The position numbers were made by a program, and so were the translations under genes. From the IMG/VR virus record IMGVR_UViG_2645727810_000002: a DNA stretch of 4,772 bases. The stretch is one strand, 5' to 3'. Source of the stretch: a virus. Its lineage: Duplodnaviria; Heunggongvirae; Uroviricota; Caudoviricetes. The first letter of the stretch is position 1. The number at the start of each line of letters is the position of its first letter. This document shows, piece by piece, positions 261-4,772 of the stretch. The notes under the pieces are model-generated. The model saw only the letters and a list, made by a program, of their open reading frames with translations. It did not search any database and had not been told where the DNA came from.

Positions 261-575
261 TTAATTTATTTGTATGCCTGCTCTTTCTTCATCGAGTTTT
301 TTTAGCTTGTATCGCATAGCTCTTACTGAATAAATTGAGCGGCAGGTTGCAATTGCTATTTCTTCTGCGGAGAACTTACCGAAAAGTGATACTTCGGCTC
401 TTGTCCAGCGTCTTCCACGAAGTCGGCTAACAATGTCAGCGCCAATCCTTGTTGCTTTCGCCATTACTGCTTTTTCAGTCCTTTCCAGTTTTTCTGCGAT
501 AACTTCAACTGGCATTGTCGCCGCTACCTCGCGCAAGAAATCGACTTCCCATTTCTCCCATGGAGTCTTTTTCAT
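261..575 (-). CDS. Hypothetical phage protein with two tandem HTH-like modules (putative DNA-binding regulator)
   Basis: ORF-track 104-aa ORF with ATG start 11 nt after the stop of the upstream gene. Residues ~5-52 and ~55-102 align as an internal repeat (W...E.IA....R....V.A pattern). Family not recognised. Confidence 0.6.
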
Positions 576-2524: not shown

Positions 2525-2595
2525 AGGATGCTCCTTCTGTTTGATTGCATAACGAAAACGCCTCGAGTGAAGCGTTATTGGTATGCATATAAAAA

Positions 2596-2615
2596 GGCCC
2601 TCACACTGGAGGGCA
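2596..2615 (-). terminator. Candidate rho-independent terminator inside the leftward operon (tL1-like position)
   Basis: On the minus strand: GCCCTC-CAGTGT-GAGGGC (6-bp GC-rich stem, 6-nt loop) followed by CTTTTTATAT. Sits in the 220-bp gap between the 51-aa ORF and the cIII-like gene. Confidence 0.45.
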
Positions 2616-2676
2616 AAGAAGATTTCCAATAATCAGAACAAGTCGGCTCCTGTTTAGTTACGAGCGACATTGCTCC

Positions 2677-2704
2677 GTGTATTCACTCGTTGGAATGAAT
2701 ACAC
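2677..2704. repeat. Perfect 9-bp inverted repeat with 10-nt spacer (GTGTATTCA-N10-TGAATACAC)
   Basis: Read directly from the sequence; intergenic, upstream of the terminator hairpin in the direction of leftward transcription. No flanking T-tract, so not a canonical terminator; a protein-binding site or RNA stem-loop is possible. Confidence 0.5.
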
Positions 2705-2743
2705 AGTGCTTATTCGTCATGCATTTCAGGTATTTCTTCGTAT

Positions 2744-2899
2744 TCAACACCCCACATGTTTGTTACCCAGGATAGTTTTTTCGTACCGTTGACAAGATTC
2801 AGACCACATAAACTGACTTCCATGCGGGCGAGTTTCGATATCTGTTATCTCTCCCGGCCGAACAAAACTGGTATTCGACTTCGTTATTTTTACTTTCAT
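2744..2899 (-). CDS. Hypothetical small protein (51 aa), translationally coupled to the upstream 83-aa gene
   Basis: ATG at 2899..2897 overlaps the upstream stop (TAATG); stop TGA at 2746..2744. Hand translation MKVKITKSNTSFVRPGEITDIETRPHGSQFMWSESCQRYEKTILGNKHVGC. Not in the ORF track (short). An antisense plus-strand ORF (2756..2959) covers the same DNA and is judged the shadow. Confidence 0.35.
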   Translation of the reverse strand: MKVKITKSNTSFVRPGEITDIETRPHGSQFMWSESCQRYEKTILGNKHVGC

Positions 2900-3150
2900 T
2901 ACTCATCCCCAAGAGCTTTGCTGATTGCTGACTGTGCTTTCGATACTTCATCAGGATAATGGTCATTCCAGCTTTGCTTGTATGCCTTGTTTAGCATCGC
3001 TTGCAGAGCTTCAAGCAAATCAGGAGCTGCCTCCATCAATCTCAAATCACCACGATGTATGGTTGTATCGTCAAACGTGACATAAACACCATCATCGTTG
3101 AATCCAGTGCCAACAACACTCCACGGCCTTTTCATTCTTTCTACGGTCAT
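2899..3150 (-). CDS. Hypothetical protein (83 aa), first gene of the leftward early operon (occupies the position of lambda N but is not N-like)
   Basis: ORF-track 2899..3156 begins at a GTG that is part of the SD (GAGG 3159..3156); ATG at 3150..3148 has 5-nt spacing. Protein MTVERMKRPWSVVGTGFNDDGVYVTFDD... is net acidic with no arginine-rich motif. No family recognised. Confidence 0.6.
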   Translation of the reverse strand: MTVERMKRPWSVVGTGFNDDGVYVTFDDTTIHRGDLRLMEAAPDLLEALQAMLNKAYKQSWNDHYPDEVSKAQSAISKALGDE

Positions 3151-3322
3151 ATTCACCTCTGTTGTTTATGCCAAAAATATCTTTTTCTATATCAAAAAGC
3201 TGCTTTGCTTTTTGTGACTAAAAGCAAAAAAGCCTTCTCGCTAATGAGCAGCATTGCCGTTCATCCTGAACCCGCCGCGCTCCCGACGCATGGTTTAATG
3301 TCGCGCCGTTCGACATGGCTTA

Positions 3323-3351
3323 ACTATATTCAAAGCTATTATTGCTGTAAA
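3323..3351 (-). promoter_or_regulatory. Candidate pL-like early-left promoter
   Basis: Minus strand: -35 TTTACA (3351..3346), 17-nt spacer, -10 TATAGT (3328..3323); predicted start near 3316, giving a ~165-nt leader before the ATG at 3150. Overlaps operator-like motifs. Confidence 0.45.
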
Positions 3352-3364
3352 TAGCTATAGTTAT
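3326..3364. promoter_or_regulatory. Candidate OL operator sites (two copies/variants of the ATAGCT-NN-AGCTAT motif)
   Basis: 3351-3364 ATAGCTATAGTTAT (one mismatch to the palindrome consensus) and 3326-3339, which reads ATAGCTTTGAATAT on the minus strand (good left half, degenerate right half); centres ~25 bp apart; they overlap the candidate pL -35 and -10. Additional AT-rich palindromes nearby (AGTTAT-AAA-ATAACT at 3359-3373; AATAAC-N7-GTTATT at 3367-3385). Confidence 0.4.
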
Positions 3365-3443
3365 AAAATAACTCCTTTGGTTATTTAGTCATTGATATCT
3401 AATGTAATTTATTTTTCTTGTATGTGAGATTTGGTGTTTTTTG

Positions 3444-3476
3444 GGCAATAAAAAACCCGCAAAAAGCGGGTTTGTT
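3444..3476 (-). terminator. Rho-independent terminator immediately downstream of cI (hairpin is bidirectional, strongest for the minus-strand transcript)
   Basis: Stem AACCCGC / GCGGGTT with AAAAA loop (3454-3472). On the minus strand the hairpin is followed by TTTTTTATT; on the plus strand by TTTGTTG. Lies ~15 nt after the cI stop. Confidence 0.75.
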
Positions 3477-3490
3477 GTGGTGTGATGAGG

Positions 3491-4222
3491 TTAGTAGTCA
3501 ACTACAGACCACCAGAAGATTCTTCCGATGATCTCGATATCGCTTAGATTCTTTTCTTCTTGTGGGTATTCCAGTGAGTTAAAGCTTCTAATGCTTACCT
3601 TGTCAGGCCCTGATCGAAAGAGAATCTTAATGCGTTTCCAACCGTTCTCGTTAATGGCGTAAATCTTTCCGTCAACTATTTTCTTATCGTTGGTGTTAAC
3701 AGCAACTGTTGTTCCATCAGGAATGTTTGGCTCCATGCTGTTGCCACGAGCCGGAAAACAAACAACCCCGCTTCCATCACTGTTCGCGCCAACTCTGCGA
3801 AGGGTTGATTTGGAGAAGCGCAACATAAAGCCGTTGTGATCTTCATCAATCACCCGACCATCCCCGCATGCAAACTCAATATCTTTAAGGTAAGGAACTT
3901 CAACTTCATCACCTCTTAAAGGCGTTCCTCCATCCCATGGGTCCAAATATCCCCACGTGCTTTCATGAGGAATAGAAGATTTTGGATTATAAGGTTCAAC
4001 TCCCTCATCACGCATTGGCCCAGTCCCATCGGAAAGCCATTCCGTACGAACTCCAAGCACTTTTGATATTTCAAAAAGTTTGCGCGTATTGCGTGTTTTT
4101 CCAGACGTAAGTTTCCAGACGCTTGGCTGAGACATGCCAACAGCATTGCCAAGAGAAGCCTGAGTAAACCCAGCCTGATCCATCGCGTATGTAAGCCTTT
4201 GAGAAAAAGTATCTAGTTTCAT
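3491..4222 (-). CDS. cI: CI-like phage repressor (N-terminal HTH DNA-binding domain plus C-terminal LexA/S24-type autopeptidase domain)
   Basis: 243-aa ORF. HTH-like segment QASLGNAVGMSQPSVWKL; S24 signature G-N-S-M (putative nucleophile Ser162) and W-K-R-I-K ~35 residues later (putative general base Lys196), matching the LexA/CI/UmuD Ser-Lys dyad spacing. Divergent from a cro-like gene across an operator-rich intergenic region. Confidence 0.9.
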   Translation of the reverse strand: MKLDTFSQRLTYAMDQAGFTQASLGNAVGMSQPSVWKLTSGKTRNTRKLFEISKVLGVRTEWLSDGTGPMRDEGVEPYNPKSSIPHESTWGYLDPWDGGTPLRGDEVEVPYLKDIEFACGDGRVIDEDHNGFMLRFSKSTLRRVGANSDGSGVVCFPARGNSMEPNIPDGTTVAVNTNDKKIVDGKIYAINENGWKRIKILFRSGPDKVSIRSFNSLEYPQEEKNLSDIEIIGRIFWWSVVDY

Positions 4223-4228
4223 TCGTAC

Positions 4229-4257
4229 AACCTATAGCTACAGCTATTATTAGTCAA
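4229..4257 (-). promoter_or_regulatory. Candidate pRM-like promoter giving a leaderless cI transcript
   Basis: Minus strand: -35 TTGACT (4257..4252), 17-nt spacer, -10 TAGGTT (4234..4229); the cI ATG (4222) lies ~6-7 nt downstream of the -10, and there is no SD. Same arrangement as lambda pRM/cI. Confidence 0.45.
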
Positions 4258-4296
4258 ATACCTAAAGCTATTTACTTTCTGAATAGCTTTGGCTAT
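4234..4296. promoter_or_regulatory. Tripartite operator (OR-like): three 14-bp inverted repeats, consensus ATAGCT-NN-AGCTAT
   Basis: Site at 4234-4247 ATAGCTACAGCTAT (perfect 6+2+6 inverted repeat), 4258-4271 ATACCTAAAGCTAT (1 mismatch), 4283-4296 ATAGCTTTGGCTAT (1 mismatch); centres 24 and 25 bp apart, between divergent cI and cro. Confidence 0.6.
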
Positions 4297-4299
4297 TAT
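4271..4299 (+). promoter_or_regulatory. Candidate pR-like promoter for cro
   Basis: -35 TTTACT (4271-4276), 17-nt spacer, -10 TATTAT (4294-4299). The third operator overlaps the -10/spacer and the second overlaps the -35. The cro SD AGGAG (4318-4322) is followed by ATG 4331. Confidence 0.5.
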
Positions 4300-4330
4300 T
4301 CTGATTGTGAATTCAGCAGGAGTTATTTTT

Positions 4331-4561
4331 ATGGTCAACGAGGCTATTAAAGCGGCTATTGACTCAGTAGGAAGTCAGCAAAAGTTAGCTAATGCCTGCG
4401 GTGTTAAGCAGCCGTCTGTATGGGCTTGGTTGCATGGGAAGAAAAGGGTATCCGCTGAAAATGCCAAGCGCATTGAAATGGCTACCAATGGAAGCGTCCC
4501 TGCATACCTGATTCGCCCTGATTTATCCGCTTTGTTCCCCAATCCGAACAAAGCAGCTTAA
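4331..4561 (+). CDS. cro: Cro-like / YdaS-family HTH transcriptional regulator (76 aa)
   Basis: ORF-track 4289..4561 starts at a TTG inside the operator region; ATG 4331 with SD AGGAG 8 nt upstream is the likely start. HTH-like QQKLANACGVKQPSVWAWLHGKKRVSAENAKRIE; small size; divergent from cI. Confidence 0.8.
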   Translation: MVNEAIKAAIDSVGSQQKLANACGVKQPSVWAWLHGKKRVSAENAKRIEMATNGSVPAYLIRPDLSALFPNPNKAA

Positions 4562-4574
4562 TAAAGCAAATTTT

Positions 4575-4626
4575 TATACCGAACGGCCCGGTATACGGTC
4601 GGGTGCCCGGCGTGGTCATGGATGAC
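4575..4626 (+). promoter_or_regulatory. Stem-loop and palindrome cluster just downstream of cro (candidate nutR/tR1-like or protein-binding element)
   Basis: TATACCG-AACGGCC-CGGTATA (7-bp stem, 4575-4595) followed by a GC-rich stretch and the palindrome GTCAT-GG-ATGAC (4615-4626). No adjacent T-tract, so not a canonical intrinsic terminator. Confidence 0.35.
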
Positions 4627-4680
4627 TGTCAATGGTGCACAATAAAAAACCAAATTATTTACCTATGGAAATAGTAAGAA

Positions 4681-4772
4681 ATGGAACAAACAAGTTACAG
4701 CAAACTATCACAGCGTGACGTTGATCGCGCAGAAACAGATTTACTCATCAACCTGTCAACGCTTACCCAGCG
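4681..4772 (+). CDS. Hypothetical protein, N-terminal fragment (possible CII-like regulator; continues past the right edge)
   Basis: ATG 4681 with weak SD-like AAGAA upstream; frame open to the window end (MEQTSYSKLSQRDVDRAETDLLINLSTLTQ...). Follows cro as cII does in lambda. Identity not established. Confidence 0.35.
   Translation, partial: MEQTSYSKLSQRDVDRAETDLLINLSTLTQ

Follow-up and report, generated by a model that had tools for sequence, protein, structure and literature searches.

Abc1 ('anti-RecBCD protein 1', gp35, 94 aa) has been counted among the components of the recombination system of phage P22 since the 1980s, without a mechanism being attached to the name. It helps P22 recombination but is not essential, and its molecular mechanism is unknown (PMC12315714, PMC9836394). 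The gene lies in the order erf-abc1-abc2-orf56. The protein carries a helix-turn-helix (HTH). Its expression was reported to trigger, in ECOR15, a cell death that depends on the P4 prophage and to make several wild strains of E. coli more sensitive to phages; interference with P4 transcription was proposed (bioRxiv 10.1101/2023.04.06.535777; PMC12373910). When Abc1 was subjected to AP-MS, no clear host partner pattern was obtained (PMC12373910).

D5 of phage T5 (255 aa) is another early phage protein with a repeated HTH unit. It is annotated as a DNA-binding protein required for replication, late transcription and shut-off, and was reported to bind retron msdDNA via its HTH (PMC13405049). Three-helix units of a similar kind are present in Caulobacter GcrA (PDB 5yiu), which combines one such domain with a C-terminal sigma-70-binding domain, and in tandem in the R2R3 Myb/SANT proteins and in Tc3. 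Here we analysed a 104-aa protein with two such units, encoded in the early-left operon of a lambdoid phage region, and compared it with these systems.

Results

Genomic setting of the 104-aa gene

The window, that is, the whole stretch of 4,772 nucleotides that was analysed, comes from a temperate enterobacterial phage or prophage of the lambdoid/P22-like kind and represents its immunity and early-left region. Its sole plus-strand gene was Cro-like (4289-4561; Pfam YdaS_toxin/P22_Cro), and every other gene was found on the minus strand. In order, these were a CI-type repressor (3491-4222; HTH_3 and Peptidase_S24), small early genes, a 103-aa PHROG 3486 protein at the promoter-proximal edge of the Rec module (1961-2272; 1.1e-57), a RecT-family single-strand annealing protein (1053-1964; Pfam RecT 1.2e-31, PHROG 148 1.8e-90), a Gp157/Mu-Gam-like end-protection protein (587-1075; Pfam Sipho_Gp157, PF05565, 5.6e-36; PHROG 253 1e-52), the 104-aa ORF (261-575) and a DUF2737 protein (77-244; PF10930 3.3e-30). 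The Gp157/Mu-Gam-like protein is an anti-RecBCD-type member of the Rec module, and its HK140 counterpart has been classed as MuGam (PMC12315714). The DUF2737 protein is the equivalent of P22 orf56, with 75% identity between the two products.

Two features of the gene boundaries were also recorded. The PHROG 3486 gene overlapped the start of recT by 4 nt. The start of the Gp157/Mu-Gam-like gene was ambiguous; the longest ORF began at TTG 1075 and overlapped the 3′-end of recT by 23 nt, and the annotated versions of this gene were 441 bp in phages Gally and mEpX1 and 483 bp in Kapi1.

The 104-aa ORF has an ATG start and a stop codon at 261-263. It started 11 nt past the stop of the Gp157/Mu-Gam-like gene and ended 16 nt short of the DUF2737 gene, and the gene is thus packed within the leftward operon, beyond the recombination genes, in agreement with the first-pass annotation, which had put it late in the early-left operon. 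Its frame was kept in homologues at 34-89% identity. It is a genuine conserved gene.

In the comparison with sequenced phages, bases 96-2710 showed 97-98% identity to Gally, mEpX1, HK140 and others, and 2587-4772, the immunity region, matched other phages such as APC_JM3.2 (98%); a mosaic junction was located at about 2590-2710, and 80% of the window was not covered by any single phage record. Among complete E. coli genomes, the 104-aa gene was carried by 299 of 5426 (~5%), chromosomally every time. The E. coli copies were annotated as 'hypothetical protein', and the RefSeq phage records named the gene 'transcriptional regulator, D5-like'.

Placement of the protein in the Abc1 and D5 families

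The family of the protein had at first gone unrecognised, and it can now be placed. The 104-aa protein matched PHROG 11492 (4.5e-23), which is labelled as of unknown function, and PHROG 323 (2.2e-20), which is labelled 'transcriptional regulator, D5-like'; both P22 Abc1 and T5 D5 appeared as distant homologues at the profile level. No alignment was obtained when the protein was compared with P22 Abc1 and Abc2 by BLASTP, and a tblastn search of the phage collection returned relatives at ≥90% identity only. We then used a profile of the family. With 12 diverged members, hhalign aligned this profile with P22 Abc1 at 93.6% probability (P 2.1e-7) over 77 colinear columns spanning both units, against just 16.8% for a shallow profile of 10 sequences, and hmmsearch gave a single-comparison E-value of 7.4e-9. 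Abc1 itself matched PHROG 323 at 1.3e-23. In Pfam, Abc1 showed HTH_8 at residues 22-36 and Sigma70_r4_2/Myb at residues 49-94, with Sigma70_r4_2 above threshold (3.4e-6) and Myb and HTH_8 weaker. Furthermore, the GenBank record of phage Gally labels a 99%-identical gene as 'Anti-RecBCD protein 1, similar to P22 Abc1'. From these profile comparisons, distant homology between the 104-aa protein and P22 Abc1 appears very probable. HTH units are widespread, and a share of the Abc1 profile score may thus come from a common fold class rather than from orthology. A relationship with Abc2 was rejected; Abc2 is unrelated and belongs to Pfam Anti-RecBCD_p2.

The two proteins were similar in size and in basic charge (pI 10.3 for Abc1 and 9.9 for the 104-aa protein), and a model of an Abc1 homologue showed the same predicted layout of 3+3 helices in two units and the same top fold matches. 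Unit 2 of the 104-aa protein aligned to the Myb-like second unit of Abc1. However, the first unit of Abc1 lacks the W...E...FL and IAEKLER signature that is conserved in the family of the window protein. The two genes also agree in location, both lying where the early-left Rec module ends distal to the promoter, after the annealing/Rec genes and before DUF2737. In P22, abc1 is located between erf and abc2, whereas the window gene follows a RecT and Mu-Gam-like pair and abc2 is absent. The 104-aa protein is the HK140/mEpX1-type counterpart of P22 Abc1, and this comparison supplies a name and some genetics but not a mechanism.

The same profile aligned with T5 D5 at residues 141-229, over two units (hhalign 87%, P 4e-6; hmmsearch E 1.7e-9), and D5 was found to hold the HTH unit several times. 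The likeness thus lies in the repeated HTH unit, in being an early phage protein and in the annotated DNA binding. D5 differs in belonging to a virulent phage, in being 2.5 times as long, with additional units and with spacers rich in alanine, and in the location of its gene, which is surrounded by replication genes rather than placed in a lambdoid Rec module. As judged from these profile matches, the 104-aa protein belongs to the wider phage superfamily of PHROG 323, whose namesake is D5. The family is a known one, already grouped in PHROGs and with one record already labelled as Abc1-like, but it is mechanistically unsolved; the protein adds a new, diverged member to it.

The NCBIfam search gave nothing meaningful for the protein, and for a relative the sigma70-ECF model scored 17.5 bits against a cut-off of 42.9. 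The 94-aa P22 Abc1 homologues in Salmonella genomes (P0196-P0220) carry the NCBI name 'sigma-70 family RNA polymerase sigma factor'. We regard this name as an over-annotation, as the similarity is that of a region-4-like HTH only, without region 2.

The protein is built of two HTH units

The first-pass annotation had described two tandem HTH-like repeats sharing the pattern W-x14-E-x-I-A-x4-R-x4-V-x-A. When this pattern was searched for as a regular expression, the core E-x-I-A-x4-R-x4-V-x-A was recovered in both halves (residues 24 and 71), and the complete pattern was found at residue 9; in the second half, from residue 57, the spacing after the tryptophan was x13 rather than x14. In the single sequence, the repeat was not above chance: the half-versus-half BLOSUM62 local score was 21 against a shuffle mean of 21.3, and the best ungapped identity count of 8 was equalled by 1847 of 5000 shuffles (37%).

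Unit 1 and unit 2 were also compared as separate profiles, for which an alignment of 12 diverged family members (alignment A3) was used. These aligned with each other at 94.4% in hhalign (P 9e-8) over 39 columns, in the very register that had been proposed. A word-indexed search yielded 51 relatives, among them three-unit proteins of ~152 aa, whose third copy of the unit matched unit 2 at P 2.6e-11. An exhaustive HMM search returned 3337 cluster representatives at E ≤ 1e-3, many of them 300-900 aa long with 4-10 matched stretches. In one of these (P0053, 807 aa), a helicase is followed by nine units, and the Pfam Myb_DNA-binding match reached 2e-41. The duplicated HTH architecture of the 104-aa protein is nearly certain; it was accepted because the family profiles, the relatives with three to ten units and the AlphaFold model described below support a duplication, although the single-sequence tests do not.

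In P0053, P0058, P0076 and P0084, nearly the whole length was made up of 4-10 tandem copies of the HTH unit, and one of these proteins was fused to a ResIII/Helicase_C helicase. Myb-like HTH repeat arrays were abundant in bacterial and phage proteins.

Predicted structure, fold and charge

The AlphaFold2 model of the 104-aa protein, made with the family alignment as input, had a mean pLDDT of 82 and consisted of two equivalent three-helix units, as the proposal of paired HTH folds had anticipated. Unit 1 (residues 6-45; 441-560, minus strand), delimited by AlphaFold2 secondary structure and alignment conservation, contained helices 8-17, 23-30 and 34-44, of which 34-44, after the turn, is the predicted recognition helix; the residues conserved in this unit were W6, E10, F13, L14, IAEKLER 26-32, A41 and G45 (alignment A3). 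Unit 2 (residues 55-101; 273-413, minus strand) contained helices 59-66, 70-77 and 81-101 and was characterized by W57-T-x-x-E61, an R79-S80 turn and a long basic recognition helix (81-101). The two units were joined by the basic linker ADIVSRLRG (residues 46-54; 414-440, minus strand), which was the internal part of lowest confidence, the pLDDT block for residues 51-60 averaging 69. With a pTM of 0.47, the model does not define how the two units are oriented to each other.

The best fold match was the DNA-binding domain of GcrA, followed by Tc3, Cef1/Cdc5, SNAPc4, the c-Myb repeats, homeodomains and sigma-4. When viral models were searched with Foldseek, many uncharacterised phage proteins of ~100 aa with the same two-unit build were obtained, and also entries named GcrA-like, Myb-like and 'D5 protein'. 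The likeness to sigma-70 region 4 and to Myb/SANT units, which had been pointed out from the sequence, was thus upheld, with Pfam Sigma70_r4_2 matching 8 of 10 family members (best E 1.4e-7) and the multi-repeat relatives matching Myb. The window protein itself remained below every Pfam gathering threshold, with a sub-threshold HTH_12 match at residues 70-97. In a profile search of PDB sequences, unit 1 gave a weak match to the GerE-type HTH of NarL (E 0.0028); the neuraminidase matches in the same search were dismissed as chance.

The structural matches to c-Myb, WER, Cef1, SNAPc4 and Tc3 share with the 104-aa protein the tandem three-helix units, the 'W-T-x-x-E' start and the 'R-S/T ... V-R' recognition helix. 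However, a Myb repeat has three regularly spaced tryptophans, and the window protein keeps the first only and stays below the Pfam Myb threshold. Membership of Pfam Myb_DNA-binding (PF00249)/SANT was accordingly rejected, as no PF00249 match was obtained and each unit retains the first W alone, although the protein would work in the manner of a Myb repeat. Membership of GcrA (PF07750) was rejected as well: there was no Pfam match, the resemblance is to the DBD-like fold alone (present twice), and 104 aa leave no room for the C-terminal sigma-70-binding domain of GcrA, which is absent. GcrA prefers methylated sites, a preference that cannot be assumed for the 104-aa protein.

The calculated pI of the protein was 9.9, and it ranged from 9.4 to 10.5 in 11 of 12 family members, the acidic exception being P0044 (pI 5.4). 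The net charge was +7 for residues 51-104 (unit 2); both third helices were net positive, and unit 1 as a whole was net neutral. As modelled, the 104-aa protein is small and basic, and its two tandem three-helix HTH units, connected through a short basic linker, are of the type seen in Myb/SANT proteins and at the N-terminus of GcrA.

Gene neighbourhood across diverged loci

All of 80 near-identical loci in IMG/VR showed the order of the window, RecT, Gp157 (MuGam-like), the 104-aa gene and DUF2737, and these loci are not independent. We thus collected a diverged set of 31 loci at 34-63% identity from IMG/VR, NCBI and Logan assemblies, and a profile scan of genome contigs yielded 6 loci. In all 31 diverged loci, the Abc1-like gene came directly after a gene of the Rec module, with a gap of 0-30 nt and a single case of 135 nt.

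Five kinds of immediate upstream neighbour were observed: Gp157 after RecT, a 189-aa protein after a DUF3799 exonuclease, a 92-aa protein after Sak4 or Rad52, YqaJ, and RecT after DUF3799. The modules that precede the Abc1-like gene were composed of RecT and Gp157; RecT and YqaJ; Gam, an uncharacterised protein and YqaJ; the DUF3799 exonuclease and the 189-aa protein; Sak4 (AAA_24) or a Rad52-like protein with the 92-aa protein; or DUF3799 and RecT. The position equivalent to that of abc1 is thus retained even where the recombination machinery is unrelated.

About 1.4 kb upstream of the Abc1-like gene, the PHROG 3486 gene was present in 18 of the 31 diverged loci, with RecT-type and DUF3799-type modules both, and it therefore marks the other edge of an exchangeable Rec cassette. 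As many of the modules are bordered by this gene on their far side, the conserved position may in part result from an inherited lambdoid gene order, or from the swapping of cassettes between flanks that are themselves conserved, rather than from functional coupling.

Directly downstream of the Abc1-like gene, DUF2737 was found in 16 of 31 loci and a DNA methyltransferase in 7 of 31. The methyltransferases belonged to four families (Dam, N6_N4_Mtase, a Dcm-Dam fusion and MT-A70); their genes lie at L004:6456-7007, L090:5276-6397, L098:4018-5799 and L106:5450-6109, and also in L168, L171 and L172. This adjacency may be meaningful, because GcrA, the best fold match, is a regulator tied to DNA methylation, or it may be coincidental.

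Two conserved proteins were encountered just before the Abc1-like gene, one of 189 aa (L090:4417-4986), which follows DUF3799, and one of 92-95 aa (L091:4708-4986, 92 aa), which follows Sak4 or the Rad52-like protein. Neither gave a Pfam match, and they are candidate unrecognised components of the Rec module.

Discussion

Analysis of the window has placed a gene annotated as 'hypothetical protein' next to P22 Abc1 and has described the duplicated unit of its product. DNA binding by the 104-aa protein is likely, as far as can be judged from its charge, its predicted fold and its relatives, and a role as a DNA-binding regulator is plausible. Taking fold, charge and gene position jointly, we consider it somewhat probable that the 104-aa protein is a monomeric, two-headed dsDNA-binding protein which is expressed alongside the Rec genes and has an accessory or regulatory function. 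Its synthesis would coincide with that of RecT and the Gam-like protein, early in the lytic cycle. The third, positively charged helix of each unit would then enter the major groove of dsDNA, and a bipartite site would be read by the monomer, as in R2R3 Myb proteins and in the bipartite domain of Tc3. Once bound to DNA, the protein might assist or regulate the Rec/anti-RecBCD module; alternatively, it might modulate the transcription of the host or of a resident prophage, as has been proposed for Abc1. Bipartite recognition, and any role in recombination or counter-defence, are inferences from these data.

The historical name 'anti-RecBCD protein 1' implies a direct action on RecBCD, and units of SANT type, which share the fold of the two HTH units, are often protein binders instead of DNA binders. 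The 104-aa protein could accordingly be a SANT-like adaptor that binds RecBCD, RecT, the Gam-like protein or another host factor and modulates RecBCD or recombination directly. This seems rather unlikely to us, given the pI of about 10 and the basic third helices, and given that DNA is bound by the proteins nearest to it in structure and sequence (the DNA-binding domain of GcrA, Tc3, R2R3 Myb and T5 D5); the AP-MS experiments on Abc1, with their lack of a clear host partner pattern (PMC12373910), speak against it as well, and no single phage partner is conserved, because the Rec modules before the gene have unrelated components. It is still less to be expected that the protein is directed at RNA polymerase as a look-alike of sigma-70 region 4, docking on the polymerase (e.g., on the beta-flap or on sigma partners) or competing for -35-like DNA, and so redirecting or shutting off host transcription. 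Such an action would fit with Sigma70_r4_2 being the most frequent Pfam match in the family, with the above-threshold match of Abc1 to the same model, and with the sigma factor name given by NCBI to the Abc1 copies; according to its annotation, the related D5 of T5 is required for late transcription and shut-off, and GcrA, the best fold match, works on RNA polymerase.

The first-pass annotation had also suggested an excisionase-like recombination directionality factor, which is highly improbable. The idea is invited by the small size, the basic charge and the HTH units of the protein and by the place of its gene in a temperate phage's early-left operon, and the HTH domains of Tc3, resolvase and invertase are among the fold matches. 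However, mEpX1, Gally and Kapi1 carry near-identical copies of the gene and each has a distinct annotated excisionase 1.2-3 kb further left; xis abuts int in mEpX1 and Gally, and the Kapi1 stretch shows only xis. The gene abuts the Rec module throughout the diverged loci (31/31), several unrelated genes lie between it and int, and no excisionase family was matched in Pfam, PHROGs or NCBIfam. The separate xis of the relatives and the association of the gene with the Rec module thus both argue against a directionality factor.

Abc1-like tandem-HTH proteins might be a general, so far unlisted component of lambdoid Rec modules which acts on DNA itself, for instance by marking or holding recombination substrates, or which reads methylation as GcrA does, rather than a set of ordinary transcription factors. 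The idea of methylation reading comes from the methyltransferase genes directly downstream in 7 of 31 diverged loci. We think this reading unlikely; if it were true, Abc1-like proteins would be kept whatever annealing protein, nuclease or RecBCD inhibitor is used.

Our analysis reveals a diverged Abc1-like double-HTH protein that closes Rec modules of unrelated composition, and it adds tested homology to Abc1 and D5 and the Myb/GcrA-type HTH identity of the duplicated unit. Nothing is overturned by these results; a 'hypothetical protein' is replaced by a member of a placed, still unsolved family. The outcome is a testable hypothesis of bipartite dsDNA binding, together with a broader set of natural variants for studying Abc1-type proteins.
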